The notes under the pieces: generated by a model
Database searches by the model: none
What the model saw: only the letters and a program-made list of their open reading frames with translations
Told to the model about the DNA's origin: nothing
Translations under genes and position numbers: made by a program
Assembly (NCBI GenBank): GCA_963666985.2
Contig: CAXXIA010000002.1
Coordinates: 2,912,001 to 2,976,000, forward strand
Length of the DNA stretch: 64,000 nt
Reading direction: 5' to 3'
Source: Spirochaetia bacterium
GTDB lineage: Bacteria; Spirochaetota; Spirochaetia; DSM-2461
Part shown: piece after piece, positions 4,723 to 25,235 of the stretch
Position numbering within the stretch: the stretch's first letter is position 1
How the letters are laid out: each line of letters begins with the position of its first letter

Positions 4723-4787
4723 AAAGCTGTTCATAACAGAAGAGAAAAACCAACATTCATCCTATAATTAAAATATGTTTAGAGTTG

Positions 4788-8918: not shown

Positions 8919-9860
8919 ATGGCCGAGAAACTCGTTATCGCAGTCGGCGGAAACGCCCTCATTGAAGACCCCCATCACATTTCCGTTCATGCCCAATACC
9001 TCGCGGCCCGGCATGCCGCCGAGAGCCTCGGAGGTTTGATGGCCGCCGGTCATCATATTTCCATCGTGCATGGCAACGGCCCTCAGGTGGGATTCATTCT
9101 CCGGCGGGCCGAATTGGCCCGCGGCGTGCTTCATGAAGTTCCTCTCGATTCCTGCGTGGCGGATACTCAAGGAGCTCTCGGCTACAACCTTCAGATGGCC
9201 CTCGGGAATGAGATTACGGCGAGAAAACTGAATCGAAGCGCCGCGACCGTGGTTACTCAGGTTTTGGTTGACCGTGACGATCCGGCGTTTTTGAATCCGG
9301 TGAAACCGATCGGCGGATTCATGGACGAAGAAGAGGCTCGGCGCCGCGGCGAAGAAGAAGGCTGGAAGGTTGTTGAGGATGCGGGAAGAGGATGGCGGCG
9401 CGTCGTACCGTCGCCCGAACCGAAGAGTATTCTGGAATTGGACGTAATCCGCTCCCTTGTGGACGCGGGAGTTGTCACCATCGCGGTCGGCGGCGGAGGA
9501 ATCCCCGTGGCTCCGGGAATATCGGGAGAGCTGGAGGGAGTTGAGGCGGTTATCGATAAAGATAAGGCGGCTTCCCTGCTCGCCGTGTCGCTGAACGCCG
9601 ACAGGCTGATTATTTCAACGGCCGTTCCCCGTGTCTGTATCGATTACGGGAAGCCGACGCAGAAGGAACTGACGAAGATCAATGTCGCGGAGGCGGAATC
9701 TCTGGCCGCTCAAGGGCAGTTCGCTCCGGGCAGCATGCTTCCGAAAATTGAAGCGGTGGTGGCCTTTATCAAGAAAACGGGCCGGGAAGGACTCATTACC
9801 GATCCGCCGCATTTGGCCGCCGCTTTGAAAGGGCGGGCGGGGACGAGGATTGTTCCTTGA
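8919..9860 (+). CDS. arcC: Carbamate kinase
   Basis: AVGGNAL, HGNGPQVG, KPIG, GRGWRRVVPSP, GGGGIPV, VIDKD, GSMLPK. Confidence 0.93.
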   Translation: MAEKLVIAVGGNALIEDPHHISVHAQYLAARHAAESLGGLMAAGHHISIVHGNGPQVGFILRRAELARGVLHEVPLDSCVADTQGALGYNLQMALGNEITARKLNRSAATVVTQVLVDRDDPAFLNPVKPIGGFMDEEEARRRGEEEGWKVVEDAGRGWRRVVPSPEPKSILELDVIRSLVDAGVVTIAVGGGGIPVAPGISGELEGVEAVIDKDKAASLLAVSLNADRLIISTAVPRVCIDYGKPTQKELTKINVAEAESLAAQGQFAPGSMLPKIEAVVAFIKKTGREGLITDPPHLAAALKGRAGTRIVP

Positions 9861-9873
9861 AATTGATGAAATC

Positions 9874-9921
9874 GTCAATATTGGTATTGTATATTGACAT
9901 ATTTTGAAGATTGGATAAGAT
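9874..9921 (+). promoter_or_regulatory. Sigma70 promoter of serC with overlapping inverted repeat
   Basis: TTGACA (9894-9899), 16 bp, TAAGAT (9916-9921); GTCAATAT-N9-ATATTGAC dyad covers the -35. Confidence 0.6.
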
Positions 9922-10005
9922 TAATGAAAGGAGCATCGCAGATCTTGATATTTTTGTGATGCAGGATCACAATAAAATCCATTAAGGAAAACAGGAGTTC
10001 GATCC

Positions 10006-11085
10006 ATGAATCGTCCCGTCAATTTTTCAGCCGGTCCGTCCATGATTCCCACGGAAGTTCTTGAGTCTCTCGCCGCGGATATGGTGGATTACCGCGGTAC
10101 CGGCCTTTCGCTTGTGGAAGTGAGTCATCGCGGCGCCGTTTATGACGGCGTTCATCAGGAGGCCATCTCTCTTTTAAAAGAGCTGATGAATATTCCCGAT
10201 GGTTATTCGATTCTTCTTCTCGGCGGCGGCGCGACGTTGCAGTTTTCCATGCTTCCCATGAATCTGATGCTTCCCGGAAAAAGCGCCGATTACGTCAACT
10301 CGGGTTCTTGGGCCAAAAAGGCCATTACCGAAGCGAAAAAGGTCGGTGATGTCAACGTTGTCTGGGACGGAGCGGGAAGCAGTTACATGTCTTTGCCCGA
10401 TCCCGCTTCCGTCAAACCGTCTTCCGCTTCTTCCTATCTTCATATTACCAGCAACGAAACCATCGGCGGCGTCCAGTGGAAAACGTTCCCCGATACCGGA
10501 GATGTCCCTCTTGTCGCGGACATGTCCAGCGATATTTTAAGCCGGCCGATTGATGTGAGCCGTTTCGGAGTGATTTACGCCGGAGCTCAGAAGAACCTGG
10601 CTCCCTCCGGTTTGACCGTGGTTATCATCAGGGACGATCTCTTGACAAGATCGTCCGATTCCCTCGGATCCTATCTGAATTATGCCGTTCACGCGGAAGC
10701 GAACTCGCTGTACAATACCCCGCCGGTTTTCCCCATATGGGCCATGAAGCTTGTTCTGGAAGGCGTGAAAAAACGCGGAGGCGCCGCGGCCGTTGCCAAA
10801 GATAACGCCGATCAGGCGGCGGCACTTTATGACGCGATCGATTCCTCCGGCGGATTTTACCGATGCCCCGTGGAAAAGGCGGTGCGTTCGGATATGAATA
10901 TCGTCTGGCGTCTGGCCGAGGAAAGCCGGGAAGCCGATTTCATCAAATCCGCCTCCGAAGCGGGACTCATCGGGTTGAAGGGGCATAGAAGCGTCGGCGG
11001 ATGCCGGGCCTCATTGTACAACGCCATGACGATGGACGGTGTTCGGCGGCTTATTGATTTCATGGCGGACTTTGCCCGGAAATAA
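10006..11085 (+). CDS. serC: Phosphoserine aminotransferase
   Basis: NFSAGP, SHR, NETIGG, DMSS, YAGAQKN (PLP lysine), YNTPP, GHRSVGG.RASLYNA. Confidence 0.95.
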   Translation: MNRPVNFSAGPSMIPTEVLESLAADMVDYRGTGLSLVEVSHRGAVYDGVHQEAISLLKELMNIPDGYSILLLGGGATLQFSMLPMNLMLPGKSADYVNSGSWAKKAITEAKKVGDVNVVWDGAGSSYMSLPDPASVKPSSASSYLHITSNETIGGVQWKTFPDTGDVPLVADMSSDILSRPIDVSRFGVIYAGAQKNLAPSGLTVVIIRDDLLTRSSDSLGSYLNYAVHAEANSLYNTPPVFPIWAMKLVLEGVKKRGGAAAVAKDNADQAAALYDAIDSSGGFYRCPVEKAVRSDMNIVWRLAEESREADFIKSASEAGLIGLKGHRSVGGCRASLYNAMTMDGVRRLIDFMADFARK

Positions 11086-11182
11086 GGTAAGGACGTCGGC
11101 TCCCTGAAGCCGCTTTACGGGTTCCGTATCGGATTCGGTATCAATGCCTCAATAGCGTTCGCGGGAGTCTGAGGAGGAGAGA

Positions 11183-11659
11183 ATGTTCCGCCTTGATCGG
11201 TTGAACATGAGTATTATCGACCATCTTCAGGAGGGTCGAAAATCCTATAAGAAAATCGCCGATAATCTGGGAATCTCGGAAAATACGGTCAAGGCGCGGG
11301 TAAGAAAGCTTGAAGAAGAAGGCATTCTTAAAATCGCGGGATTCGTTGATCCCGAATCCATGGAAGGACACCAGATTATCTATATAGGCGTGAAGCTTAA
11401 GGATATGAATTACCCGACCAAAGGCGAAGAAATCAGCCGGCTGCGCCGGGTTGTTTCCGTGGGCGTCGTTACGGGCCGCTACGATCTTATTGTAACGGTT
11501 CATCTGAAAACCGGTTTCGGGCTTTTGGAGTTCCTCAGCGAGGAGCTCGGCCGCATCGACCGGATTGAGTCCATTGAAACGTTTATGGTGTACAAAGGAT
11601 ACAACATTAAAGTTCCTTATATCGCCGATGAAAAAGAACTGATTGAGGTGGCGGAATGA
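11183..11659 (+). CDS. Lrp/AsnC family transcriptional regulator
   Basis: N-terminal HTH (GRKSYKKIA...SENTVKARVRKL) and RAM domain (VTGRYD). Confidence 0.9.
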   Translation: MFRLDRLNMSIIDHLQEGRKSYKKIADNLGISENTVKARVRKLEEEGILKIAGFVDPESMEGHQIIYIGVKLKDMNYPTKGEEISRLRRVVSVGVVTGRYDLIVTVHLKTGFGLLEFLSEELGRIDRIESIETFMVYKGYNIKVPYIADEKELIEVAE

Positions 11660-12903
11660 ATTCTGTTGAACGTCTTCGTAAGTTGGGTATCGCCGTTCCC
11701 AATATTCTCGTTCCCGGCGCGGGAACGGCTCCGGAAACCTGGTCCGTTATCGCCTGCGATCAGTTCTCTTCGGATCGCGGTTATTGGGAAGAAACACGGC
11801 GTATTGTCGGCGGTGATCCTTCAACGCTTGATTTGATTATTCCCGAATGCTACCTGGAAGATGGGGATAGGGATGAACGGGCGGGCGCGGCCAATACCGC
11901 GATGGCTGAAATCTTGGAACATGGTGTTTTAAAGCAGCTTGATTCCGGTTTCATTCTGGTGGACAGATCCACTCTTTACGCTCCTCGCCGACGGGGATTG
12001 GTTTTGGCCGTTGATTTGGAGGCCTACGATTTCTCGAAAGGATCGACCAGCGCCATCCGGCCCACCGAAGGAACGATTCGCGATCGGCTGCCGCCGAGAA
12101 TGGCCGTTCGCCGGGGCGCCTTGCTGGATCTGCCGCACGTTCTTTTACTCATGGATGACCCTGATGATTCGGTCATGAATGCGGCTTCGGCCGCCGCCGC
12201 GGCCAAGGTTTACGACTTTGATCTGATGCAGAAAGGCGGTCATGTAACCGGCCGTTTTATTCCCGAAGAGGCGATGAGCGCTCTGGCCGGCGCTTTTGAA
12301 GGAATCCTTTCCCAATCCGGCTTTCTGTTCGCCGTCGGGGACGGCAATCATTCTCTGGCATCCGCAAAAGAGATTTGGAAAGAGAAGAAAAAAGCCGGAG
12401 CGCCGGAGGATCATCCCGCTCGTTTCGCCCTGGTGGAGGTGGAGAATATTCACGATGACGGACTTCATTTCCATCCCATCCACCGTGTTCTCTTCGGTGT
12501 TAACGCCCGGGAAACGGCGGACTTTATTCGGAAGAAACTCGGCGCGAAAGAGGCGGCCGGAGCCGGTGATGTGTTTGTAAAACTTCTGACTCCCGATTCG
12601 GAATGTTCCCTTGATTTTGCCGTTCCCGCCGGACGTTTGGCGGTTGAACCTTTGCAGGATGCCCTCGATGCCTACTTGGCGGATCATCCCGAAACCTATA
12701 TCGATTATATCCACGGCGCCGATGCCGTTCGAAATCTCGTGTCCGATTCCAATGACCGCATCGGTTTGATATTGCCGGACATTGATAAAAAGACGTTTTT
12801 CAAAAGGATTCTGGAGTTGGGACCGTATCCGCGCAAGACGTTCAGCATCGGGGAAGCGGTTGAAAAGCGCTATTACCTTGAAGCGAGAAAGCTTGTTGAC
12901 TGA
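11656..12903 (+). CDS. DUF1015 family protein (ParB/Srx-like fold)
   Basis: WSVIACDQF, IRPTEGT, GDGNHSLA, PIHR, PRKTFS.GEA.EKRYY; usual serC neighbour. Confidence 0.85.
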   Translation: MNSVERLRKLGIAVPNILVPGAGTAPETWSVIACDQFSSDRGYWEETRRIVGGDPSTLDLIIPECYLEDGDRDERAGAANTAMAEILEHGVLKQLDSGFILVDRSTLYAPRRRGLVLAVDLEAYDFSKGSTSAIRPTEGTIRDRLPPRMAVRRGALLDLPHVLLLMDDPDDSVMNAASAAAAAKVYDFDLMQKGGHVTGRFIPEEAMSALAGAFEGILSQSGFLFAVGDGNHSLASAKEIWKEKKKAGAPEDHPARFALVEVENIHDDGLHFHPIHRVLFGVNARETADFIRKKLGAKEAAGAGDVFVKLLTPDSECSLDFAVPAGRLAVEPLQDALDAYLADHPETYIDYIHGADAVRNLVSDSNDRIGLILPDIDKKTFFKRILELGPYPRKTFSIGEAVEKRYYLEARKLVD

Positions 12904-12984
12904 TGAATCTGTTTTCCGTGCGGTTTGTTTCCCGGGCCCAATTCGGCCGGAAAATGTACGCCGCAGCCTTTAACTGACGCCTCT

Positions 12985-13239
12985 ATGGAATGCCGTCCCG
13001 GCTGCGCCGCCTGCTGTATCGCCATTACTATTTCGTCTCCTGTTCCGGGATTTCCGAACGGCAAACCGGCCGGTGTGCGCTGCGGCGCTTTGGCTCCGGA
13101 CGGACGATGCCGGATCTGGGAAACCGCGGAATATCCCGAAGTCTGCCGGAATTTCCGGGCCGGAAGAGAGTATTGCGGAAAGACCGCCGACGAGGCACTC
13201 CGTCTTCTTTCGGAACTGGAAGCGGCGACCGGCGGTTGA
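12985..13239 (+). CDS. YkgJ family cysteine-cluster protein
   Basis: MECRPGCAACCIA...GKPAGVRC...C.I...PEVC...C. Confidence 0.85.
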   Translation: MECRPGCAACCIAITISSPVPGFPNGKPAGVRCGALAPDGRCRIWETAEYPEVCRNFRAGREYCGKTADEALRLLSELEAATGG

Positions 13240-13468
13240 GCCTTTCTTGCTTCCTTATCAGGGGGTGTATGCAAAACGAAGCCGGCTTTTGAGCGCATGA
13301 TCGGGTTCTTTCTCCGGTGGGCTCATTAAGAGTCATTAAAAAATTTTCATAATCTTTTCATATGAGGACTTTGTGTTATTGACTCTTTTTTTTCAGGAGG
13401 TTATCCCTCCATCATAAGGCGGACCCGTCCCTTAAGGGACCTGAAGGGGTTCGCGCGAGGTATACCGG

Positions 13469-14638
13469 GTGAATAAATCACCTTTGCTTTCCCGTGCTTA
13501 CGATTCGGGAGAGCTCATGTCCGGAAACGGTGACGATTCCGGCGAGAACGGCCCTGAACACGGCGGGAATTGGGAGCCTTTGCTGGACGGCGCCACATCC
13601 CAATTCCCTGTTATCGATCCGGACATCCAGGATTTAACGCGAACCGTTACGGATCATAGGCTTCCCACCCCCGAGCGGGTGATGGCGTTCCGGGACATCA
13701 TCGATTCGGAAATAGGTGATACGGCTCTTACCCGGGTGCGGAACATCGAGCGCCAGATCAATCTGCGAAACCTCTATTTGAAGTTCGAAGGCGGCAATCC
13801 CACGGGCACCCAAAAAGACAGGGTGGCTTTTGCCCAGGCCCAGGATGCTCTTCGCCGAGGATATGAAGGCGTGGCTTTGGCGACATGCGGAAATTACGGA
13901 GCCGCCATGGCTCTTGCGTGCCGGTTGGCCGGCTTGCGGTGCATCGTGTATATACCGGAAGGCTACGCGACCAAGCGGGTTGAGGAGATTACCGAATACG
14001 GCGCCGAAATTCGATTTTGCGGCAAGGATTACGAAACCGCCTGCGAACTCGCCCGAAAATCCGCTCAGGACGATGATTTCTACGACGCGAATCCGGGCGG
14101 ATCAAACACGGCCCTTCAGCTTGAAGCGTATGCACAAATCGCATACGAGATTTATGACGAACTGCGTGATGCCCCCGCGGCGGTAGCGGTTCCGGTTTCC
14201 AACGGAACGACTTTGGCGGGCATCCACTTGGGATTTTTAAGTCTCTACAGGCGCTGCAAGACTTCGCGCATTCCAAAGCTTATTGCCGGATCGGCGTATA
14301 AGAAAAATCCAATTGTGGATTCGTGGATTAAAGGACGTCAGGAATGCCGGGATTTGGATCCGTCGACGATAAAGGAAAGCGCCGTGAACGAACCGCTTAT
14401 CAACTGGCATTCCACTGACGGCGATGAAGCTCTTAAAGCCATCCGTGATTCGGGAGGTTGGGCCTCCTATGTTTCGGATAAAGCCATGAAGCGTTCGGCG
14501 CGGATGCTGAAAGAAACAGACGGTCTTTGGGTGCTTCCGGCGTCAACCGCGGGGCTTTTGGCCCTCATGGAGAAGCATGCCGCCGAGCCGCTGCCGGGAG
14601 ATCGGTATGTAGCGGTTATTACCGGTAAACAGTCCTAA
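13469..14638 (+). CDS. Fold-type II PLP-dependent enzyme (threonine synthase-like, non-canonical)
   Basis: KFEGGNPTGTQKDR (PLP lysine), ATCGNYG, PVSNGTT, PASTAG, VITG. Confidence 0.85.
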   Translation: MNKSPLLSRAYDSGELMSGNGDDSGENGPEHGGNWEPLLDGATSQFPVIDPDIQDLTRTVTDHRLPTPERVMAFRDIIDSEIGDTALTRVRNIERQINLRNLYLKFEGGNPTGTQKDRVAFAQAQDALRRGYEGVALATCGNYGAAMALACRLAGLRCIVYIPEGYATKRVEEITEYGAEIRFCGKDYETACELARKSAQDDDFYDANPGGSNTALQLEAYAQIAYEIYDELRDAPAAVAVPVSNGTTLAGIHLGFLSLYRRCKTSRIPKLIAGSAYKKNPIVDSWIKGRQECRDLDPSTIKESAVNEPLINWHSTDGDEALKAIRDSGGWASYVSDKAMKRSARMLKETDGLWVLPASTAGLLALMEKHAAEPLPGDRYVAVITGKQS

Positions 14639-16041
14639 TGGGGATTAACAATTTTCTTTCAGTCGGAGCCGCGGCCGAAGAGGCCGGAATCAGTGTGGGA
14701 TTTCACGAAAGGTCATATGACATTTCCTATCCCCGAGAGATATGGAAGGCTGTTCCACCCTCCGCTCGGGACTTGCTTGTTGATAATGTCGCCCTTGCGT
14801 CGGTTCTGCATCTGCCTATGGTTTACCCGGAAACGCGGGGCGTGGAGCTGAATACCGTCCGTCCTCTTTTCGAACCCTATTTTTTTCGGAATTTCGTGGG
14901 AGACATTCCTTCCTGCTGCGATATGGACGGCAATTCGATTATTACGGACATCGAACGTTTTTTGAATCTCGAATACCGGTTTGCGCCGGGGGCGGTCCGT
15001 ATTCCGGAGATATGGCCGGCACCGAAAAAAAAAGAAGCCGGAGCTCTCGTGCCTCTGACCTTCGGCAAGGATTCCCTATTGTCGTTCGCCGTTGCCGAGG
15101 AAATCGGTCTGAAACCGAAAGCCGTTTTCGTCGACGAACCGTCTTTCGGCCGGGAACGGGGATACAAGGAAGAACTGGGAAGCCGGTTTGAATCGGAGTT
15201 CGGACATCGTCTGGAAATCCTCGATCATGAGACAGGCCGGCTTCGCGATGCCGCGCATCTGGGAGTACCTCTCGGAGAATACGGATGGGGACTTCAGTCC
15301 ACCGAATACGCTCTGTTGATGCTGCCTTTCGCCCGGTACTGGGGCGTCGGGTATTTGTTTTTCGGAAATGAACAAACAGCCGGAACCACGTATCGCGATA
15401 AGGAAGGGCGGTGGACCATTCACCCGTGCTTCGATCAGTCCCACCAATGGACTCTTCATATCGACGCCATGACGTCTCTCTTAACGAATCCCGAACCGGT
15501 GCGCACCGGCAGTCTTATCGAACCGCTGATGGATATGATGATTCAGGGGATTCTGGTTCGGCGATACCCGAAGTATGCGGATCTGCAGATGAGCTGTTTC
15601 GTCGAGGATGAAGGCGGCCGGGAATCACGCTGGTGTCATAACTGCACCATATGCGCCAAAATGTACCTGATGTGCGCCGGAGCCGGTGTCGATCCGGCGG
15701 CCGTGGGATTTCGCCGATCCATGCTGACGGAGAAGCAGAGGGACTTTTTTGCTCTTTTCGGCGGCTCATCTCCCTTCCCGTACGCCCGGACCGCCGAGGC
15801 CCGGGACGAACAGCTTTTTGCTTTTCACTGTGCCGCCCGTTTCGGTTTCGACGATCCGCTCGTCAAGGAATTTAAATCCTCACGGGCGGGAGAAGAAGCC
15901 GCCCGCCGTGAAGAAGAATTGATGGATCGGTTCGTTTCGCTTCATTCTTATGATACGGTCCCCGCCGAACTTCGGGATTCCGTGTTCCGTATTTACTCCG
16001 AAGAACTTGCCGCGTTTAAGCGGCGCTATGAGGCAGCATGA
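14638..16041 (+). CDS. PP-loop ATP pyrophosphatase, MurL/QueC-like
   Basis: LTFGKDS PP-loop variant, FGNE, SC...RWCHNCTIC cysteine cluster; start overlaps the upstream stop (TAATG). Confidence 0.6.
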   Translation: MGINNFLSVGAAAEEAGISVGFHERSYDISYPREIWKAVPPSARDLLVDNVALASVLHLPMVYPETRGVELNTVRPLFEPYFFRNFVGDIPSCCDMDGNSIITDIERFLNLEYRFAPGAVRIPEIWPAPKKKEAGALVPLTFGKDSLLSFAVAEEIGLKPKAVFVDEPSFGRERGYKEELGSRFESEFGHRLEILDHETGRLRDAAHLGVPLGEYGWGLQSTEYALLMLPFARYWGVGYLFFGNEQTAGTTYRDKEGRWTIHPCFDQSHQWTLHIDAMTSLLTNPEPVRTGSLIEPLMDMMIQGILVRRYPKYADLQMSCFVEDEGGRESRWCHNCTICAKMYLMCAGAGVDPAAVGFRRSMLTEKQRDFFALFGGSSPFPYARTAEARDEQLFAFHCAARFGFDDPLVKEFKSSRAGEEAARREEELMDRFVSLHSYDTVPAELRDSVFRIYSEELAAFKRRYEAA

Positions 16042-17036
16042 AGATTGCATTAGTCGTAAATACACGCAGAGAAGAAGATGAATTTCAGGTGGAATTCGAT
16101 CCTCCCTCGACAATTGAGAAGATCCGCGAGGGAATCGAAGCCGCGGGTCATGAGTATGTATTCATCGAAGCCGATGAAAACGTAGTGGAGAATCTTAAGG
16201 CCGTCCGGCCCGATCTGGTTTTCAACCGATCGGAAGGCTTGCGGGGCGAGAGCCGGGAATCTCATATCCCATGCATTCTGGAAATGCTGGGAATCCCGTA
16301 TGTGGGTTCCGGTCCGCGAACTCTGGCGGTGTGTCTGGATAAAGCTTGGACGAAGACGTTCGTTCGGGCTCACGGGGTTGATACGCCTTCTTTCAGTGTT
16401 CTTGATTCGATGGAAAGCGCGAAGAATTGCAGGGTGGATTTTCCGATCATCCTTAAGCCCAATTCCGAGGGTTCGTCCATCGGAATCAACGAAGACAACG
16501 TGGTGCGGGATGAACAAAGTTTTCTGAACAAAGTTCGGGATATGCTGGATTTGTATCGGGAACCGGTATTGGCCGAAGAATTCGTTCCCGGAAGGGAAAT
16601 CAGCGTGAGTCTCCTGGGCCGCCCCGGAGGGGAACCGCAAGTCTTCCCGCTTTTGGAAGTGGATTTTTCCCGAATGCCGGAGACGGTAGGCAACGTGTTC
16701 GGACAAGTTGCCAAGACCGAGTACGACGATTTGGCGAATTATGTTTGTCCTGCTTCGGTTTCTCAGGATTTGGACGATCAAATTCGAAAGGCGGTTCTGC
16801 AAGCCTGGAACGTTTTGGAAATTCGGGATTTCGCGCGTTTCGATTTCCGTATCGACGGCCGCGGACGTCCGAGATTTTTGGAAGTGAATCCCCTGCCGGG
16901 CATGGATTATGACGAATCGAGCCGGGATTTTTCTTTTTACATTTTGATGGCCTTCCGTGCCGGTTACGACTACAACGGCCTGGTGGCCGCTTTGATTGAT
17001 TCCGCTCTTTCGAGAATCTCCGGTGGAACTGCTTGA
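16038..17036 (+). CDS. ATP-grasp ligase, D-Ala-D-Ala ligase-like
   Basis: EFD, VFNRSEG, LGIPYVGS, CLDK, KPNSEGSSIGI, EEFVPGRE, RFDFR, LEVNPLPG; ATGA overlap. Confidence 0.85.
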   Translation: MKIALVVNTRREEDEFQVEFDPPSTIEKIREGIEAAGHEYVFIEADENVVENLKAVRPDLVFNRSEGLRGESRESHIPCILEMLGIPYVGSGPRTLAVCLDKAWTKTFVRAHGVDTPSFSVLDSMESAKNCRVDFPIILKPNSEGSSIGINEDNVVRDEQSFLNKVRDMLDLYREPVLAEEFVPGREISVSLLGRPGGEPQVFPLLEVDFSRMPETVGNVFGQVAKTEYDDLANYVCPASVSQDLDDQIRKAVLQAWNVLEIRDFARFDFRIDGRGRPRFLEVNPLPGMDYDESSRDFSFYILMAFRAGYDYNGLVAALIDSALSRISGGTA

Positions 17037-17553
17037 ACGGGCTGCAATAGCGGCTTTCGGGACTTGCGCGGGATTCGCGGAAGGAAAGAAGACTCAGCTG
17101 ATTTGGAAGTCTTTTTCTCAATGGACTCCCGCTCTTTACCGCATGTTCCGACGAGTGGAAAAGACGGCTTTTCGCGCCGAACTGCGCTATACCCGCAAAG
17201 AGCTGCGGGAACGTTCGCTTAAGCCGAGTTTTGAGACTCTGATTGTTTTTACCGGGCATCGGCCGAGTGCGGTGATGCTTGTGTATCAAGGCGGCGGTGA
17301 AAAAGTCCTTTATCTTGATACCCTCGCTGTACGGAATCCCGGGAAGGGAACCGGCGGCAGACTGCTCAGAGCGTTCCTGGAAGAAGCCCGCTCCGACGGG
17401 TATCGCGGTATCGAATTGGATACGGAAAACATTAACGATCAGGGGATTCGTCTGGTGGATTGGTATTGCCGCTTCGGATTTACCGTTCTCAAAGAAGAAG
17501 CGGACGGGAATGTGTCCATGGAATGTATCCTGTCGGTTCCTTCAACCTTCTAA
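17023..17553 (+). CDS. GNAT family N-acetyltransferase
   Basis: YLDTLAV..PGKGTGGRLL (motif A), LVDWYCRFGF; overlaps the ligase stop. Confidence 0.8.
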   Translation: MELLERAAIAAFGTCAGFAEGKKTQLIWKSFSQWTPALYRMFRRVEKTAFRAELRYTRKELRERSLKPSFETLIVFTGHRPSAVMLVYQGGGEKVLYLDTLAVRNPGKGTGGRLLRAFLEEARSDGYRGIELDTENINDQGIRLVDWYCRFGFTVLKEEADGNVSMECILSVPSTF

Positions 17554-17565
17554 CGAATGGAATAA

Positions 17566-19551
17566 TTAGAATAAGCCGAATCGCTGAAGAAAAATATCGT
17601 TCCCGCGCCTCATTGCCGAGCGCCATGGATCAATTTTGGGTTCGATGATGGTGCATCCCCTCCGCTCCATATCTATAAGCATTCTCTTTTCGTATTCCGC
17701 GAGTTGGAGACGACTGAATTCTTCAGCTTCTCTTGCCGCCCTTTCAATTCCATGTTGGTGTTCTTTGGAAAGATCTACCCACGATTTCATGCTTGCCGCC
17801 ATAAGCAGGGGGCTGTACATATGACGAGTTAGAATGATATAGGGAGCTACTTCAAAGAAATGCTGTGCCCATATTGTTGAAATGGGATTTTCTTGGGCAT
17901 CCAGTTCATCCTGCTTAAGGGCTTCATAGACTTTATTTATTTCCAGCGGAATTGGTTCCGCACCGAGATTACTCCAGAGAACAGAGTGTAGAGGATTTGG
18001 AGGAACACGAATCCTCAGTCCTTTTACATCATTCGGATTTCGTATCTCTGATTTAGCTGTAAGACATCGAAAACCCCGTTCCCAACATGAAAGAATCCGG
18101 AAACCGCTTGTTTCCAATTCACGGAACATATGCTGAATATTAGTTGAATCTTTCATCATTTCCCAGCCTTCCTTATTACTGGTAACGACGAAAGGACTGA
18201 GAAATAGAATCATTTCTTTTAGGTACTGTGCAAAAATGGAGATTCCTGCTACAACAAAATCAACACCACCTGCGGAAACCAATTCCAGAAGCTTCGTATC
18301 ATATCCCAAGAGGCTTTCGGGATATGTTCTAACCGAATAATATCCGTTTGTGTAGAATCTGACTTTTTCCGCGAATACTTGTGCGGTTTTTTCTCTTAAT
18401 CCATCAGGTGGATCCGTATGAGCGAAAATAAGATCACGGGAAGCATATTTACCAATATAAATCCAGGATCTGTCCAATTCAGGTTTACCTTTATTTTTCA
18501 TTCTATAATCGGAAGGAGAGAGGCCCGATTTCTTTTTAAATGTTCTTCGAAACGTAATCGGTGTATTGAACCCGCATTTATGCCCAATTTCCTTTAAGGA
18601 TAAGTTTGTTGATATTATGAGATCTTTTGCTTTGTCTGTACGATGTCTCTCCACATATTCGGTAAACGTTTCTCCAGTTCCCTTATGGAAAACTGTAGAA
18701 ATATATTCTCTTGTGAGATGGAAATGGGATGATAATGTCTGAAGGCTCAAATCGGGTTGAACTAAGCATGAACTAATATAGTGTTTAAGACTTTCTATCA
18801 GTTGATTTTGATGACAGTTCCGTATTCCCTTGTAGTATTGAGAAAGAATGTTCGCAATAAGTCTGACTTGATCAAAATATAAGGAAGTCTTGCAGTATGT
18901 TCGTAATTTAAAAATTTTATTTGCTATAGTTTTAATTAAGTCCTTTTCCCCACTTTGTTCCAGTTCAGAAAGAAATCGAAGAAACATCAGTTCAATCGCA
19001 TCCATCAGTTTCTCGGCCATTTGATCCGAAAGAATCATATCTTCTGTGTTTTCTTTTAGAGTTAAATCTATAAGACGTTCGGTGTTAAGAAAATTCCCCG
19101 ATTTAATTGATTTAGCCAGCATTTCTTCACGTTCAAGAGAAAATCGGGGATAAGGTGAGTCTTTTGGGATTGAAGAATATAGTATGAGTTTTCTATCAGA
19201 TCGATGAAAAGGATAGGAAACCATTTTAAGAAGACTTCCCGCGATGTCAATAACGGTTGATTCCTTTTTACAATTCTTTCTGGCAAAAGCAAATTCAACA
19301 CCTTCATCTTCAAGTATGGATTCAATAACACTTCGTGTGATTGAATCTTCTTTAAATTGAATAAAGGATATTTTCTTATTACTAATTTCATAACAAGCAA
19401 GTACATGAACATGGGATTCTGATGATGGACATGTGAAATTCGGCATTGTGTTTTGAAGAAATGGAAAGATAATGGCAACAATTTCACCATTTCCCGTGAA
19501 GTATTCATTTAAAATCTCAATACCAGAACTCATGATTTGTATTTTTCGCAT
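17566..19551 (-). CDS. AraC-family regulator fused to a C-terminal TRAP DctP-like domain
   Basis: Central AraC HTH (PDLSL...YISTVFHKGTG...CGF...FRRTFKKKSGLSPSDYR), then HTDPP...GFR...KGLRIRVP...DAQENP; no signal peptide. Confidence 0.85.
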   Translation of the reverse strand: MRKIQIMSSGIEILNEYFTGNGEIVAIIFPFLQNTMPNFTCPSSESHVHVLACYEISNKKISFIQFKEDSITRSVIESILEDEGVEFAFARKNCKKESTVIDIAGSLLKMVSYPFHRSDRKLILYSSIPKDSPYPRFSLEREEMLAKSIKSGNFLNTERLIDLTLKENTEDMILSDQMAEKLMDAIELMFLRFLSELEQSGEKDLIKTIANKIFKLRTYCKTSLYFDQVRLIANILSQYYKGIRNCHQNQLIESLKHYISSCLVQPDLSLQTLSSHFHLTREYISTVFHKGTGETFTEYVERHRTDKAKDLIISTNLSLKEIGHKCGFNTPITFRRTFKKKSGLSPSDYRMKNKGKPELDRSWIYIGKYASRDLIFAHTDPPDGLREKTAQVFAEKVRFYTNGYYSVRTYPESLLGYDTKLLELVSAGGVDFVVAGISIFAQYLKEMILFLSPFVVTSNKEGWEMMKDSTNIQHMFRELETSGFRILSCWERGFRCLTAKSEIRNPNDVKGLRIRVPPNPLHSVLWSNLGAEPIPLEINKVYEALKQDELDAQENPISTIWAQHFFEVAPYIILTRHMYSPLLMAASMKSWVDLSKEHQHGIERAAREAEEFSRLQLAEYEKRMLIDMERRGCTIIEPKIDPWRSAMRRGNDIFLQRFGLF

Positions 19552-19691
19552 ACTGGAATATTAAAATATGATTGGGTAAGCATGAAGTAGAATGTGGGAA
19601 TATTAATATTTGATCCCTCTGTGAACGATTGATGCTATCTGATCTTAAAATGAGTCCCTATGATAAATGAAAACATTCGTGGAGGGACTTA

Positions 19692-20735
19692 ATGAATAGT
19701 AAGGCAAAACGATTCCTATTGTACGTGATATTGACAATGGTATTGGGGCCTTTAACGTTGATGGCTAACGGCCAAGGAGAAGAGAACAGCCCAGTTAAAA
19801 CTGTAACTCTCAAACTTGGGCATACAGATCCGCCCGGAGGGATACTTGACGAAACGACTCAATTATTTGCTGAAAAAGTTTACGAATACACCGATGGAAG
19901 GTATGAAATCAATTGTTTTCCCAGTGGGCAACTTGGTGACAACCGAAAACTTCTCGAACTCGAACAACTTGGTGCCGTTGATTTTGTAATTACGGGAGCA
20001 GCTATTTACGGCCGGGTTTATGAGCCTATGAGTTTGACTCTTTGCCCATTCCTTCTGGAAACTCTGGAACAGGGTTGGCATCTCTATGATGATTCCGATT
20101 GGGTTCAGTCCCGATTTACAGAACTGGAAAGTGAAGGATTCAAGATGCTTGCTACATGGGAAGCCGGTTTTCGGTGTCTGACAACCAAAAAACCTGTCGG
20201 CGGCCCCTCTGATGTAAAAGGAATGAAACTTCGTGTCCCCGGGAATCCGATTCATTTGGCAATTTGGAACTCAATGGGCGCAAATCCTGTTGGGATGGGT
20301 ATAACAGAGGTCTATATGGCTATTCAGCAGGATATTGTTGATGGCCAGGAAAATCCGATACAGACCATCCATGTTCAGAAATTCTATGAAGTGGCTCCCT
20401 ATGTCACGATAACCAATCATGTCTATGGACCGACTCCCATATCTATGAGTATGAAAACTTGGAATACTTTGTCGACCGAGGATCAGTCGGCAATAACAAA
20501 CGCTGCTCAAGAATGTTCCGAATATATGCGGAATCGCGTGAAGAACTCTATTAACGAACTCATCAAGGATATGGAATCTCAGGGTGCAACCATCTCTTAT
20601 CCGGATAATCTTGATGAATGGCGCGAAAAAGCAATGCCAGCCTATGACGAAATTCGAAAGATCTATGGCGATGATTTGGTTAATTCTTTGATAGAAGAAG
20701 CTGCCGAGATACGAGCGAAATATCCGGCAAAATGA
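19692..20735 (+). CDS. dctP: TRAP transporter substrate-binding protein
   Basis: Signal peptide; GFR, KGMKLRVP, EVY, DGQENP. Confidence 0.9.
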   Translation: MNSKAKRFLLYVILTMVLGPLTLMANGQGEENSPVKTVTLKLGHTDPPGGILDETTQLFAEKVYEYTDGRYEINCFPSGQLGDNRKLLELEQLGAVDFVITGAAIYGRVYEPMSLTLCPFLLETLEQGWHLYDDSDWVQSRFTELESEGFKMLATWEAGFRCLTTKKPVGGPSDVKGMKLRVPGNPIHLAIWNSMGANPVGMGITEVYMAIQQDIVDGQENPIQTIHVQKFYEVAPYVTITNHVYGPTPISMSMKTWNTLSTEDQSAITNAAQECSEYMRNRVKNSINELIKDMESQGATISYPDNLDEWREKAMPAYDEIRKIYGDDLVNSLIEEAAEIRAKYPAK

Positions 20736-20742
20736 TATTGAC

Positions 20743-20777
20743 GGGGAAAGTGTCCGAATAAATTCGGCTCTTTCTCC
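20743..20777 (+). terminator. Intercistronic hairpin after dctP (partial terminator or mRNA stabiliser)
   Basis: GGGGAAAG-tgt-CCGAA taaa TTCGG-ct-CTTTCTCC. Confidence 0.5.
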
Positions 20778-20791
20778 TATGGAGAAATCTT

Positions 20792-21277
20792 TTGAAAATC
20801 GTACAAAAAATTCTTAATGATTATCTTGGAAAAATTATCGATATTTCAGCGATGGTGATAATGACCGTACTTGTATCGGTTGTATTTATCGGCATTTGTT
20901 TTCGCTACTTTCTTGATCTTCCTTTAGCATGGTCTAATGAATTGTCACAGTTCCTTTTGGTTTGGCTGACCTTCTTTGGCGCGGCGGCGGCAACTCGAAG
21001 GGCCAAGCATCTCAGTATCGACGATATTTTCAATGCGTTGGGGCCAAAGACACAAGATATTGTGAAACGAATGATAAATGCTTTGATTTGCCTTTTTCTT
21101 ATCTTTATGGCAATCAGGGGATTAAGCATGGCTCGTACCGTCTGGTCGAGTAAGTCGGAAGCTTTGCAAGTTTCCAACGGTTTACTGTATCTGCCGTTAT
21201 CGGTGGGATTTTTCTTAATGCTTCCTTACAACCTATACAACGTATTCGCTGGGAAGGAATGGAGTGACCAAGAATGA
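20792..21277 (+). CDS. dctQ: TRAP transporter small permease
   Basis: Four TM segments; RY..W.NEL..W..F.G....HLSID. Confidence 0.9.
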   Translation: MKIVQKILNDYLGKIIDISAMVIMTVLVSVVFIGICFRYFLDLPLAWSNELSQFLLVWLTFFGAAAATRRAKHLSIDDIFNALGPKTQDIVKRMINALICLFLIFMAIRGLSMARTVWSSKSEALQVSNGLLYLPLSVGFFLMLPYNLYNVFAGKEWSDQE

Positions 21278-22557
21278 CTTTGGCAATAACCATTATTTTA
21301 TTTTTCGGTTTGATCATTGTCGGTGTTCCTTTGTTCTTCGGTGTTGGGACGGCTAGCCTATTCTATTTCACAAGTAGCGGTTTCCCATTGGAAATAATGA
21401 TTCAGAGAATTGAAGCTACCAGCGAGTCGTTTTCTCTTCTTGCTATTCCTTTTTTTGTTCTGGCCGGTCACCTGATGATGCAGGGTGGCGCCGGAAAAAG
21501 AATCGTAAAGGTTTCTGACTCTCTGGTACGTTGGCTGCCCGGTGGACTTGCGATAGTAACGGTTGGTGCCGCGATGATATTTGCCGGTATGAGCGGATCT
21601 CTAATCGCCGATGCAGCAGCCGTCGGTTCCATCATGATTCCCGGCATGACACAAAAAGGGTATCACAAGAATTATGCCTCGGCAGTTGTCGCCAGTTCCG
21701 GGAGTATCGGAGTCATTATTCCACCGAGCATTCCGATGGTTTTGTATGGATTTATCGCCGGTGTCAGTGTCGGTGAGTTATTTATGGCCGGAATTGTTCC
21801 GGGGATTCTTGTCGGATTAGCCTTGATGATTACAGCAGGGATTATCGCGACCACAAGGCGATATCAGGTTGAGAAGTTCATTGGACTTAAAGAACTTTTA
21901 AAGGATCTGGTCGTCTGCTTTCCGGCAGTTGGAATGATCATCATTATTCTTGGTGGGATTTTCGGAGGAATATTTACAGCTACAGAATCTGCGGCTGTGG
22001 CTGTCGTATATGGACTTCTGGTTGGATTCTTTGTTTATCGTGAATTGAAGCTAAAAGATCTTCCGAAGATTCTGATTGATTCGGCGGTTACCAGCGCGAC
22101 GATACTTGTGGTTATCGGTGTAGTAGGTGCATTGACTTGGGGGCTAACTGCAAATCTTGTTCCCCAGAGATTAACAAGTGCCATACTTTCTGTGACTCAA
22201 AATAAGATTTTGGTTTTGTTTCTAATAAATCTTCTTCTGCTTTTCTTTGGATGCGTTATGGGACTGGCTCCGGCTCTCTTACTCACAACGCCGCTTTTGC
22301 TTCCCGTTGCGCTATCGTTGGGCATTAACCCTTTGCATTTCGGCTTGATCGTCGTGTCGAATCTGGCAATCGGATCATTTACGCCTCCGGTTGGCGGAGC
22401 TCTTTATGTTTCATCTCAGATTGCAGGTATATCAATATGGCAAACCGCCAAAGGTCTTATTCCGTTTCTGGCGGCAAACCTCATTGTCTTGTTTCTTATT
22501 ACCTATATACCGGAAATAACATTATTGATACCCCGTTTAATGGGTGCTTTGGGTTAG
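21274..22557 (+). CDS. dctM: TRAP transporter large permease
   Basis: LLAIPFFVLAG, IIPPSIP, FTATESA, HFG, TPPVG. Confidence 0.93.
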   Translation: MTLAITIILFFGLIIVGVPLFFGVGTASLFYFTSSGFPLEIMIQRIEATSESFSLLAIPFFVLAGHLMMQGGAGKRIVKVSDSLVRWLPGGLAIVTVGAAMIFAGMSGSLIADAAAVGSIMIPGMTQKGYHKNYASAVVASSGSIGVIIPPSIPMVLYGFIAGVSVGELFMAGIVPGILVGLALMITAGIIATTRRYQVEKFIGLKELLKDLVVCFPAVGMIIIILGGIFGGIFTATESAAVAVVYGLLVGFFVYRELKLKDLPKILIDSAVTSATILVVIGVVGALTWGLTANLVPQRLTSAILSVTQNKILVLFLINLLLLFFGCVMGLAPALLLTTPLLLPVALSLGINPLHFGLIVVSNLAIGSFTPPVGGALYVSSQIAGISIWQTAKGLIPFLAANLIVLFLITYIPEITLLIPRLMGALG

Positions 22558-22561
22558 CTTG

Positions 22562-23380
22562 ATGAAAGCAGCATTCTCCTCAATGGCTTTCTTTGACCGT
22601 GATATTACATTTATTGCTTCTTTTGCCGTGAGGCACGGTTTTGATGCTGTTGAGTTATGCATGAATGAGCATCTTCATCTGAACCTGCGAACAACCGGCA
22701 AGGAGCTTAGAAATATTGCAACCGTCTTTGAGGGTGAAGGAATTAAGATCGCTTCGATTTCCAGTTATGCTAAGTTTAACAATGGCGATTCTCGAATTCG
22801 TGAAAAAGAAATTTTTGGGTTGGTAAAAGCCATAGAGTTTGCCGAGGAACTTGGCGCACCGTATGTTCGTTCTCTCGGTGGAAAGATCCCTCCGGTATTA
22901 TGGGATAAAGATTCAAAATCAAACATTGAAAATCTGGCCGGATGTCTACGAACAGTTGTCGATATGACACCGGGAAGTAATGTAGAGATTCTTCAGGCAA
23001 CTCATGACAATTTCAGCCCGGGGTATGTAGCTGCCGAAGTTGTTGAGAAAGCCGCCACACCGCGAGTTGGTGTTCTTTGGTGTGTGATTCATCCGATGGA
23101 ATACAACGAAACCCCAGATGAAACTTGGGCTGCTATAAACGAAACGGTTCGTCTGGTTCATCTTAAAGATGCGTTAAAAACCACAGATGGAGAAACGTGG
23201 GCTTTAAAGCCGCTTGGTGAAGGAAACTTACCGTTGTTTCAAGTGTTGGAAATCTTGAAAGGTGCGGAATTCAACGGACATGTGTCCATTGAATGGGAAC
23301 GTCATTCCAGACCTGAAATTTGTGATTCCGAATATGTTTTATCAGAAGGAATCAAGTACCTCGAACCTTACCTCAGTTAA
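22562..23380 (+). CDS. Sugar phosphate isomerase/epimerase (xylose-isomerase-like TIM barrel), atypical metal ligands
   Basis: GFDAVEL, VHLKD, PLGEG, SIEWE; has QATHD and LWCVIHP where ETHD and WDxxH are usual. Confidence 0.8.
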   Translation: MKAAFSSMAFFDRDITFIASFAVRHGFDAVELCMNEHLHLNLRTTGKELRNIATVFEGEGIKIASISSYAKFNNGDSRIREKEIFGLVKAIEFAEELGAPYVRSLGGKIPPVLWDKDSKSNIENLAGCLRTVVDMTPGSNVEILQATHDNFSPGYVAAEVVEKAATPRVGVLWCVIHPMEYNETPDETWAAINETVRLVHLKDALKTTDGETWALKPLGEGNLPLFQVLEILKGAEFNGHVSIEWERHSRPEICDSEYVLSEGIKYLEPYLS

Positions 23381-23399
23381 TGAACAGGAGTTAAAAGCT

Positions 23400-24359
23400 A
23401 TGAATTATAAATATGGAGTTTGTTCAGGATTACTCGGTGAACAACGAACACGCTGGATGCCTTACCAAGAGAAGCGCGACTTGGAAGGTCGATTGAAGAT
23501 TGCCTCCAAAATTAGAGGACTGGATGGTGTCGAGGTAGGATATCCTGGAGATTTTCAGAGCCCAGGCGCTCTAAAATCCTTACTGGAAAAATATGAACTT
23601 GAAGTCGCCGCGGTAAATTTGAAAGTCCGTGGACCATCATTCATGTATAAGGGCTCTTTTTCTTCACCGGAGAAACAGGCAGTCGATACGGCGATAAAAT
23701 GGGGAAAAGAGGCACTGGATGCCGCTGCCGATTGCGGGTGCGGCGTTGTGACGACTTGTCCTTTGAATGATGGTTTTGATTATCCTTTTGAAGTCGAATA
23801 TGGTACTGCCTGGGACGGAATGGTATCGGGTATAAGCTCTGTCGCATCTCACAGAAGTGATATAAATCTGGCTATTGAATATAAGCTTTCGGATCCGAGA
23901 ACACGATCTTTGGTTTCCAATGTCGGTGAGGCACTTTTGTTGGCCCGACAAACAGAAAAAAGTAATGTTGGGGTTAATCTCGATTTCGGCCATTGTCTTA
24001 TAGCACGAGAAAATCCGGCTATGTCGGTTGCCATGGCCGTAAGGGAGAAACGTCTGTTTCATGTTCACCTGAATGATAATGACCGGGTTGCGGATATCGA
24101 TTTGGCGACTGGAACAATTCATTATTGGGAAACCTTGGAATTTCTTTGGTATTTAAAGGAATACGGATATCAAGGATGGCTCGTAACAGATGTCTATCCG
24201 AAAGAAAATGATGTTGCCGAAGTTTTTTCAAGAACTATAGAACTACAGAAAAGATATCTGGCTTTAACGGAAAAAATCGATGATGTCGATTTCAGTTCCG
24301 TCCTTCGTGAACGTAATGTGATGAATACGTGGAAGAAGATGGCGGAGGTGCTGGCGTAG
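23400..24359 (+). CDS. Xylose/rhamnose isomerase-like TIM-barrel enzyme
   Basis: DGFDYPFE, IEYK..DPR, LDFGH, HLNDND...DID. Confidence 0.8.
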   Translation: MNYKYGVCSGLLGEQRTRWMPYQEKRDLEGRLKIASKIRGLDGVEVGYPGDFQSPGALKSLLEKYELEVAAVNLKVRGPSFMYKGSFSSPEKQAVDTAIKWGKEALDAAADCGCGVVTTCPLNDGFDYPFEVEYGTAWDGMVSGISSVASHRSDINLAIEYKLSDPRTRSLVSNVGEALLLARQTEKSNVGVNLDFGHCLIARENPAMSVAMAVREKRLFHVHLNDNDRVADIDLATGTIHYWETLEFLWYLKEYGYQGWLVTDVYPKENDVAEVFSRTIELQKRYLALTEKIDDVDFSSVLRERNVMNTWKKMAEVLA

Positions 24360-24377
24360 TGCGTCGGCAGTGAAAAA

Positions 24378-25235
24378 TTGATTTGTAGTACCAAATTATT
24401 ACTCAGCAGTTATTCTCATAAGTGGTCGATGGGATTTCGGAAGTTTATGCCGCAAAAACCTATGTCGATTGAATGGCTCGTTGAACGGGCCGGTGAGTTT
24501 GGATTAGATGGTATTCAGCTGGCCGATAATCTTTTTCCGGAAACTTTCAGCGACAGTCGTTGTATGGAAATCGGTGTTTTCGCCAAGGATAAAGGGATTG
24601 AACTTCAATGGGGTTTTGACGGTTGGGATAGAGAAAAGATCGATCGTATGATGGAAATTTGCCAGCTTACCGGATCCGGATTACTTCGTGGTGTTTTCGG
24701 GCCTGAATTTGTTGATGGTTTTTCGGGCGATAATGCAATCCTGACCGCTTGTCGCAAGGAAATAGACATCCTAATTCCGAAATTGGAAAAAAACGGCATT
24801 GTTCTTGCCCTTGAAAACCATTTCGACCTTTCTCTTCCATTATTAAGGCAGCTTGTAAGTTCATATGACAGGCCTGAGATTAGGGTCTGTCTGGACACAA
24901 CGAACGCCTTAGGACAGCTTTGGCGGCCTTTGGATGTCGTTCAGTATTTAGCTCCTCTCAGCACCTCCATGCATTTCAAAGATTTTACAGTTAAGAAAGT
25001 CATTGGCGGATATGAAATTATGGGGGTTGCCATTGGAGCCGGTGATCAGAATTGCTATGAGATTCTTCAACAAGCATTAAAGATAAATCCGGAGATGGAA
25101 ATCTGTATTGAGTTGGGGACTCCGCGCCCCGATGGCGAGGCCCCCTATGTTGAAAATGAAATCAAAGATGTTAATCACAGTATCGAAGTAACGAAGACAC
25201 TGCTGAAGAGATTTTATGAGGAAATCTCCTTATGA
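24378..25235 (+). CDS. Sugar phosphate isomerase/epimerase-family TIM-barrel protein
   Basis: LALENHFD, CLDTTN, HFKD, G.AIGAG, CIE. Confidence 0.8.
   Translation: MICSTKLLLSSYSHKWSMGFRKFMPQKPMSIEWLVERAGEFGLDGIQLADNLFPETFSDSRCMEIGVFAKDKGIELQWGFDGWDREKIDRMMEICQLTGSGLLRGVFGPEFVDGFSGDNAILTACRKEIDILIPKLEKNGIVLALENHFDLSLPLLRQLVSSYDRPEIRVCLDTTNALGQLWRPLDVVQYLAPLSTSMHFKDFTVKKVIGGYEIMGVAIGAGDQNCYEILQQALKINPEMEICIELGTPRPDGEAPYVENEIKDVNHSIEVTKTLLKRFYEEISL

Follow-up and report, generated by a model that had tools for sequence, protein, structure and literature searches.

A four-gene operon shared by spirochaetes and archaea: a candidate route to an acetylated peptide with an ATP-inverted residue

A 64,000-nt stretch of the genome of a Spirochaetia bacterium (contig CAXXIA010000002.1, positions 2,912,001 to 2,976,000; here called the window) carries a four-gene operon at window positions 13469..17553 on the forward strand. 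The operon encodes a pyridoxal 5′-phosphate (PLP) enzyme, a MurL-like protein, a Ddl-like ligase and a GNAT, and it represents a real, uncharacterised pathway built from known kinds of enzyme. The reading that we favour, and hold tentatively at somewhat less than an even chance, is a pathway that makes a small N-acetylated peptide, one residue of which is inverted to the D-form at the expense of ATP. The product is likely to serve outside the cell wall; a wall product is unlikely because the carriers of these genes are mostly Asgard and Bathyarchaeia archaea. The genes of the operon, in a genome of 4.86 Mb that is 93% complete, are as follows.

13469-14638, forward strand: P0001, PLP fold-II enzyme of the PRK06381 family (GTG start, 389 aa)
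14638-16041, forward strand: P0002, MurL-like PP-loop/Cys4 protein (467 aa)
16038-17036, forward strand: P0003, Ddl-like ATP-grasp ligase (332 aa)
17023-17553, forward strand: GNAT (GTG start, 176 aa; an in-frame TTG at 16996 would give 185 aa)

The four open reading frames are co-directional, overlap at their ends and together span 4.1 kb. An earlier reading made from the sequence alone (the sequence-only reading) had described overlapping stop and start codons, and all of them are present: TAATG between P0001 and P0002 (14636-14640), ATGA between P0002 and P0003 (16038-16041), and a 14-bp overlap of the ligase and GNAT genes if the latter begins at GTG 17023. Homologues of the GNAT begin at the residue matching this GTG, and the GTG start of P0001 at 13469 is backed by a spirochaete locus (L006) that is 76% identical over all 389 residues. 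The third-position GC content of the operon (0.54-0.60) matches that of the flanking serC and DUF1015 genes (0.56-0.62), and a recent foreign origin of the operon is therefore rejected. Scanning for promoters and terminators gave numbers at chance level (4 versus 2.8 and 8 versus 6.9), and a search of sequencing runs listed no RNA run containing the sequence.

Homologues of P0002 numbered 175 among 8000 scored candidates and 307 among 50%-identity representatives. A scan of genome contigs with the single P0002 sequence found no match, but an alignment scan of species genomes gave 87 confirmed loci, of which 80 were kept. Nine of these (L077-L085) were set aside, seven as a variant of the candidate phyla radiation (CPR) and two as truncated, leaving 71 loci, picked by the MurL-like gene alone, that we call type A. 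The ligase gene is found in 70 of them, the GNAT gene in 65 and the PLP gene in 64. All four stand together in 61 of the 71, which argues that the arrangement is not due to chance and answers the question, raised by the sequence-only reading, of whether the genes recur together elsewhere; seven of the ten incomplete loci lie at contig ends. The PLP gene is upstream, divergent or convergent depending on the lineage. Ligase and GNAT are fused in L048-L050, and the MurL-like protein is fused to the ligase in L069. Flanking genes differ from genome to genome. Across lineages, no fifth gene family, carrier or precursor peptide is conserved in the 80 loci, and no mur gene, transporter, peptidase or exporter is conserved among the cassette neighbours.

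By record titles, the carriers are mostly Thorarchaeota, other Asgard groups and Bathyarchaeia; Spirochaetota account for seven and Rickettsiales for one. The distribution is patchy, with the cassette in 3 of 61 related genomes (the present genome among them) and in 18 of 151 genomes from the phylum of a Thorarchaeota genome, and between the two domains the genes keep 40-55% identity. The phylum of the Thorarchaeota genome G360 has divergent copies (L199:7493-11592 and L200:7593-11988) in which all four genes are on one strand in the order MurL-like, PLP, ligase, GNAT. Two loci with bacterial titles, L027 (Actinomycetota) and L063 (Patescibacteria), hold Bathyarchaeia-type cassettes and are probably mis-binned contigs; the PLP branch of L027 lies 0.012 from a Bathyarchaeota copy. 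The sequence-only reading knew of no characterised operon with this combination, and our literature searches, which did not cover subscription journals, found no description of it or of the second cassette described below. The main text of a survey of the QueC family (PMC13329287) does not mention MurL, ATP-grasp or acetyltransferase, though its supplementary neighbourhood tables may bear on this.

P0002 falls far below the cut-off of the MurL family (NF041275; 17.1 bits against 700). Compared as profiles, however, the type-A family and a set of 11 MurL-family proteins, four of them over the MurL cut-off, gave an hhalign probability of 96.6 (E 5.5e-10). The earlier label 'MurL-like' thus holds as remote homology but fails as membership. 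Motifs common to both families are the PP-loop, GNE/SNE, DQSHxW/NHQWS ([DN]xxxW), SLxxP and SC..WCxxCxxC, and the MurL core motifs (PP-loop, S/G-N-E, SLxxP and SC..CxxCxxC) are kept in 65-73 of 73 homologues. The PP-loop and Cys cluster that the sequence-only reading had pointed out in P0002 are present, as TFGKDS and the cysteines C320, C333, C336 and C339, and so are TQKDR and ATCGNYG in P0001. In the Atlas, the nearest named clusters of P0002 are MurL (0.97), and among characterised proteins MurL is its closest relative by sequence. The predicted structure of P0002 (pLDDT 94.5) has QatC and QueC as its Foldseek neighbours, and VIA-align ranked QueC (Z 14.5, root mean square deviation 2.8, 190 aligned) and Cap9 (Z 13.8) highest. 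Since a MurL structure was absent from the results of both fold searches, structure cannot separate MurL-like from QueC-like chemistry. As to sequence, the QueC motifs VPxRN and YPDC occur in 0 of 73 homologues each, and a YxQxHxxE-like string, counted irrespective of position, occurs in 14 of 73. A Pfam scan assigned P0002 to no family and 10 of the 73 homologues weakly to QueC; sequence searches of the PDB with P0002 and with A1 gave no real match.

MurL is reported to adenylate the C-terminal Glu of a peptide, using ATP and releasing AMP, and to run from L to D only (PMC8788868, PMC5808125). A similar mode of action is probable for P0002, though it is no member of that family, and we predict it to be an ATP-dependent epimerase acting on the C-terminus of an acyl-amino acid. 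The MurD2/MurL route of Xanthomonas oryzae (XOO_1320/XOO_1319), as presented in the same reports, also combines a ligase with a PP-loop/Cys4 enzyme, and the two PP-loop proteins are homologous along the catalytic core. The present system differs in that identity to MurL is about 22%, the partner is a Ddl-like ATP-grasp enzyme instead of a Mur ligase, a PLP enzyme and a GNAT are added, MurI is encoded in the genome and the carriers are mostly archaea. With the QueC family (QueC, Cap9 and QatC; PF06508; described in PMC13329287) P0002 shares the fold, the PP-loop and the Cys4 site, but it lacks VPxRN and YPDC and has extra N- and C-terminal regions within its 467 aa. No que, qat or CBASS genes are among the recurring cassette neighbours. 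Two other MurL-like genes were seen in the course of the scans. One is very divergent (L201:8148-9476; E 9e-14) and lies amid transposases and an HTH/metallopeptidase-like gene, suggesting a defence island; the other (L062:5547-6989) is a second, divergent paralogue with 31% identity, convergent on the PLP gene and adjoining a tryptophanase-like PLP enzyme.

P0001 scores over the cut-off of PRK06381 (NF004996; 416 bits against 266) and under that of the threonine synthase family TIGR00260 (95 bits against 167). PRK06381 is itself named 'threonine synthase' in NCBIfam; the name is an annotation, and no tested function for the family was found in the literature. The closest structures to P0001 in the fold search are threonine synthases. 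With threonine synthase and the fold-II serine/aspartate racemases, P0001 has in common the fold, the PLP lysine (Lys116) and the NPTG..KDR motifs. It differs from threonine synthase in having TQKDR for SFKDR, ATCGNY for ASTGNT and NPGGxN..Q for the NSVN..R loop, and a separate canonical thrC is present elsewhere in the genome. In the alignment, for which the loop register is our interpretation, Tyr, Pro and Gln of P0001 fall in the Thr, Ser and Arg columns of ThrC that we take to be its phosphate-binding residues; P0001 appears to have lost part of this phosphate site. A Cys precedes GN in 151 of 156 homologues (Cys140 in P0001), the pattern not being found in the other five, and it aligns with the threonine of ASTGN in ThrC. 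We take this position to be that of the re-face residue Ser84 of serine racemase and of the DAPAL residues; the fold search of P0001 gave no residue pairs. A role of P0001 as a racemase or D-specific lyase, which the active-site Cys would fit, is therefore a lead only. In serine racemase the re-face residue is reported to decide racemisation (PMC6424897), and DAPAL is reported to use Lys77 and Asp120 (PMC4000059).

A plasmid of Chondrinema (L185:9944-13558) carries a PRK06381-like gene (61% identity) together with ppk2 and genes for an aspartoacylase-family protein and a 2OG-Fe(II) oxygenase. Besides the true thrC, the present genome has two more ThrC-like enzymes (C2:754679-756166 and C2:2831485-2833128), one within a xanthine-dehydrogenase/M20 cluster and the other presumably cysteate synthase-like, to judge from a motif.

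P0003 matches PF07478 with 104 bits and stays below all Ddl cut-offs in NCBIfam (170 against 243 and 143 against 246). It had been read as lacking the GGxSxEH and HGxxGEDG motifs, and it does carry FQVEFD and NRSEGLRGESRE in their places. The ATP-grasp residues R267, D269, E282, N284 and E144 (R-x-D, E-x-N and the EGSS loop) are invariant in the 13 aligned sequences. In the ligase tree P0003 falls in a clade of its own, distant from the Ddl of this genome, and it is a predicted Ddl-like ATP-grasp amide ligase of a non-housekeeping clade. The GNAT scores 24.3 bits against PF00583, over the cut-off of 20.7. It has the acetyl-CoA loop GKGTG (GxGxG), whose glycines are kept in 58-67 of 67 homologues, and its residues F59, L63, Y65, D108, G120 and E144 are invariant in all 67; a PDB sequence search gave no real match. 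We classify it from these features as a predicted N-acetyltransferase of a dedicated subfamily. The sequence-only reading had allowed that these might be an ordinary ThrC and D-Ala-D-Ala ligase, and they are not: a canonical thrC (265 against a cut-off of 167) lies at C2:1700795 and a canonical ddl, with GGRSGEH and HGSFGEDG, at C2:433190. The genome also encodes murI (181 against 147) and murD (365 against 212). One more non-canonical Ddl-like ligase is encoded at C2:940739-942883, where it is fused to an M20-like peptidase region; an orthologue lies near a cassette of the second type in L158.

That second cassette, type B, was found through the PLP gene. PRK06381 occurs in 10 of 301 genomes of the spirochaete phylum, and nine of the ten are within one other family, in which the gene is followed by genes for an 857-aa DUF1611/DgcN-like::MurL-like fusion, a creatininase-family protein and an Ala-Glu-epimerase/DgcA-like enolase. 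When metagenomes were scanned with the PLP alignment, at least 573 loci were confirmed; our counts for type B refer to the best 80 of these, a sample biased to close relatives. Where the contig left room, DUF1611 followed in 66 of 66, the MurL-like gene in 41 of 43, the creatininase gene in 26 of 31 and the enolase gene in 29 of 31. Types A and B thus have the PLP and MurL-like genes in common and differ in their acylating and ligating partners. The MurL-like protein is fused to the creatininase in 30 loci and to DUF1611 in eight. Its fusions to an acetyltransferase-like or amidohydrolase domain suggest an N-acyl amino-acid substrate, and the type-B cassette points to N-acyl-D-amino-acid chemistry. 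The families NF041892 and NF042940, which we take to represent the DgcN-DgcA D-glutamate route, have their likeness in the DUF1611/DgcN-like, DgcA-like and amidohydrolase proteins of this sister cassette, though the sister proteins score under the DgcN and DgcA cut-offs and their place in the window operon is taken by a GNAT and a ligase. DgcN-DgcA is reported to turn D-Glu into L-Glu (PMC10845958). DUF1611 (PF07755) has no match in the present genome at its 93% completeness.

The seven CPR loci encode a tandem L-amino-acid-ligase/Ddl-like protein, a MurL-like protein and the same enolase family, with no PRK06381 gene. Among candidate neighbour proteins, the 45 of 91 that were scanned are diverse, and an osmolyte signature is unsupported in them. 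In L107 and L151, a KamA-like gene (named from its translation) and two Ddl-like genes, with a GNAT gene in L151, adjoin type-B cassettes.

The genes themselves, the way they are coupled, their place by fold and family, and the fact that they co-occur and are fused are all observed; from these we infer the following chemistry. P0001 would provide a non-standard amino acid, most probably through racemisation or beta-elimination/replacement in which Lys116 and Cys140 act from opposite faces. Two amino acids would be joined by the Ddl-like ligase via an acyl-phosphate. The task of the MurL-like enzyme would be to adenylate the C-terminal carboxyl (ATP to AMP) and to turn the residue one way from L to D, as MurL does, and that of the GNAT to cap the free amine. 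For the inverted residue our first guess is Glu, because the relatives are MurL, DgcN-like and Ala-Glu-epimerase-like proteins. The sequence-only reading had proposed making or altering an amino acid, ligating it, adenylating or epimerising it and capping it, and this general scheme fits all the data; its option of a modified peptidoglycan stem is unlikely, and it had missed the DgcN-type cassette as well as the leader hairpin and mosaic origin described below. Capped peptides such as N-acetylglutaminylglutamine amide (NAGGN) and the dapdiamides are made by routes built from GNAT, ATP-grasp and PP-loop or PLP enzymes. The kinds of enzyme and the likely logic are similar here; we know of no capped-peptide route that uses a MurL-like or PRK06381 enzyme.

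Several observations weigh against this reading. Similarity of P0002 to MurL is about 22% over 228 columns, and its nearest solved structures, QueC, Cap9 and QatC, belong to enzymes that make amides, not epimers. In the structure ranking of P0001, serine racemases come below threonine synthases, and CysK has Ser at the position of Cys140 yet is no known racemase. A racemase and an epimerase in one route could be redundant. Some type-A loci are incomplete (L022 lacks the PLP and GNAT genes, L029 and L045 the GNAT gene), and the PRK06381 gene of the Chondrinema plasmid has no annotated MurL-like neighbour. In type B, a Ddl-like gene is near in only three of the 80 loci, with none nearby in the other 77, and the proteins score below the cut-offs of the DgcN and DgcA families (DUF1611, 140 against the DgcN cut-off of 480; enolase, 153 against the DgcA cut-off of 400).

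The same genes could be read in other ways. P0002 might be a QueC-like PP-loop enzyme that adenylates a carboxyl to give a C-terminal amide, the product being an N-acetyl-dipeptide-amide solute like that of the NAGGN biosynthetic route, with ammonia released by the PLP enzyme from Ser or Thr. Such amidation would agree with the rank of QueC and Cap9 as top structural matches (Z 14.5 and 13.8), the shared Cys4 site, the lack of a glutaminase domain or gene within the cassette, the PLP and MurL-like pair common to both cassette types, and the MscS genes adjoining a few type-B loci (L129, L158). We nevertheless consider it unlikely: the motifs VPxRN and YPDC, as given in PMC13329287, are found in 0 of 73 homologues and the sequence motifs agree with MurL, while QueC may rank top by default because the fold-search results held no MurL structure. 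Epimerase-like neighbours, moreover, recur in two variants, and type-B neighbours are diverse and mostly unrelated to osmotic stress. The operon might instead serve in sediments to salvage D-amino acids or peptides with D-residues: these would be acetylated or ligated, converted from D to L with ATP and deaminated by the PLP enzyme, in the manner of DgcN-DgcA. The record titles are mostly of Thorarchaeota and Bathyarchaeia, which are peptide fermenters, and GNAT and DUF1611 substitute for each other between cassette types. Type B has DgcN-like, DgcA-like and amidohydrolase genes, the makings of the D-Glu to L-Glu route described in PMC10845958. Type A, however, has the ligase in 70 of 71 loci, no creatininase and an enolase in one locus only; no transporter or peptidase is conserved beside the cassette, two ATP-consuming enzymes would be costly, and the characterised MurL is reported to run from L to D only (PMC8788868, PMC5808125). 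Salvage is in our view improbable.

We give still less weight to modification of a macromolecule or cofactor, such as a protein C-terminus, a glycan-linked peptide or a coenzyme tail, with no free small molecule formed. The protein-modifying QueC relatives QatC and Cap9 are top Foldseek and VIA matches, the substrate of MurL is a nucleotide-sugar-linked peptide, and glycosyltransferases flank some f38 type-B loci; but no conserved fifth gene, carrier or precursor peptide was found among the 80 loci, and the flanks vary by genome. A secreted antimetabolite peptide, with the GNAT as its self-protection enzyme, is very unlikely. Sets of PLP, ATP-grasp and GNAT enzymes do occur in the dapdiamide, rhizocticin and tabtoxin clusters, and the distribution is patchy (3 of 61 related genomes), but no exporter is conserved, ligase and GNAT form a single protein in L048-L050, and 40-55% identity across two domains is more like a metabolic route. 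Modification of the peptidoglycan stem, or ordinary ThrC plus Ddl, is the least probable alternative and already largely refuted, even though P0001 exceeds the cut-off of a family called 'threonine synthase', P0003 matches Ddl models, and MurL and Ddl are wall enzymes. Canonical thrC, ddl, murI and murD lie elsewhere in the genome, the carriers are mostly archaea, murD has no match in the three archaeal metagenome-assembled genomes searched (all incomplete), and no mur gene is among the recurring neighbours.

We also examined the trees of the individual genes. P0001 is 56-63% identical to type-B PLP enzymes compared with 39-48% to archaeal type A; P0002 is 42-52% identical to archaeal type A compared with 21-29% (partial) to type B. 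In both the MurL-like and the ligase tree, copies from bacteria join a Thorarchaeota/Bathyarchaeia subgroup (SH-aLRT 99 and 98). The PLP tree, from which odd-numbered metagenome loci and rows shorter than 270 aa were left out, places them with type B (97). For the PLP gene the MurL-type grouping is rejected (p-AU 4e-8, with subgroups defined after the trees had been seen), and for the MurL-like gene an all-archaeal clade is rejected (p 0.0026); L027 and L063 were scored as archaeal despite their bacterial titles. Against a mosaic origin count the long branch of type B and three groupings that were not rejected: all type A together for the PLP gene with an outgroup (p 0.083), bacterial type A with type B for the MurL-like gene (p 0.335), and all archaea together for the ligase (p 0.19). 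A module swap in the bacterial operon is well supported, and its direction was likely from archaea to spirochaetes.

A wider and somewhat more doubtful proposal can also be made. PRK06381 and the MurL-like protein may form the fixed core of an undescribed, cross-domain D-amino-acid pathway, a Cys-based fold-II racemase and a one-way ATP-driven epimerase of N-acyl amino acids, served by interchangeable acylating and ligating modules (GNAT with the Ddl-like ligase, or the DgcN-like protein with creatininase and Ala-Glu epimerase). Spirochaetes would have combined a bacterial PLP gene with a MurL-ligase-GNAT trio of archaeal type and placed them behind a new leader hairpin, and the product would be a D-peptide metabolite for wall-less Asgard archaea. 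If true, MurL-type ATP-driven epimerisation would not be confined to peptidoglycan, a small-molecule route would be common to Asgard archaea, Bathyarchaeia and some bacteria, and the orphan 'threonine synthase' family PRK06381 would gain a function. The bacterial copy, a single co-directional 4.1-kb operon of ordinary GC, would be the easiest version to express and assay, and the two non-orthologous cassettes offer a built-in cross-check of the chemistry.

The leader of the operon contains one further element.

13419..13454, forward strand: leader hairpin (36 nt: 8-bp outer stem, 3′ bulge, 5-bp inner GTCC/GGAC stem)

The hairpin ends two bases 5′ of the GAGG ribosome-binding site (13457-13460). 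It could be aligned in five spirochaete loci (this one and L006-L009), with 96.9% of cells paired. Two-sided changes were seen in three pairs, and 4 of 500 shuffles scored as high, though kinship alone can reach such values without structure. It has no Rfam match, the search giving one chance match, and a model of it recovered no more than its five training copies when run against 96 sources, and in 41 genomes no copy beyond those already known. The hairpin was seen solely before this operon and was not found even in L010, L020 and L044. It is likely a cis-regulatory element and, judging from these five sequences, a translational control element is plausible.

Within the window, the genes 5′ of the operon (8919-13239) are carbamate kinase-like, serC-like, Lrp-like and DUF1015 genes, together with an 83-aa Cys-rich open reading frame without a family match (12986-13239); they are not among the recurring cassette neighbours in other genomes. 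An island of lower GC (0.37-0.50) lies directly 3′ of the operon, at 17566-30000. As named from translations, it begins with a fused AraC and TRAP solute-binding protein on the minus strand (17566-19551) and includes a TRAP transporter, three TIM-barrel sugar isomerase-like genes, an AraD-like aldolase and a transketolase. Farther upstream, at 4785-6203, is a gene for a GGDEF protein with a GGEEF motif and an N-terminal Cys-containing sensor region that presumably resembles V4R.

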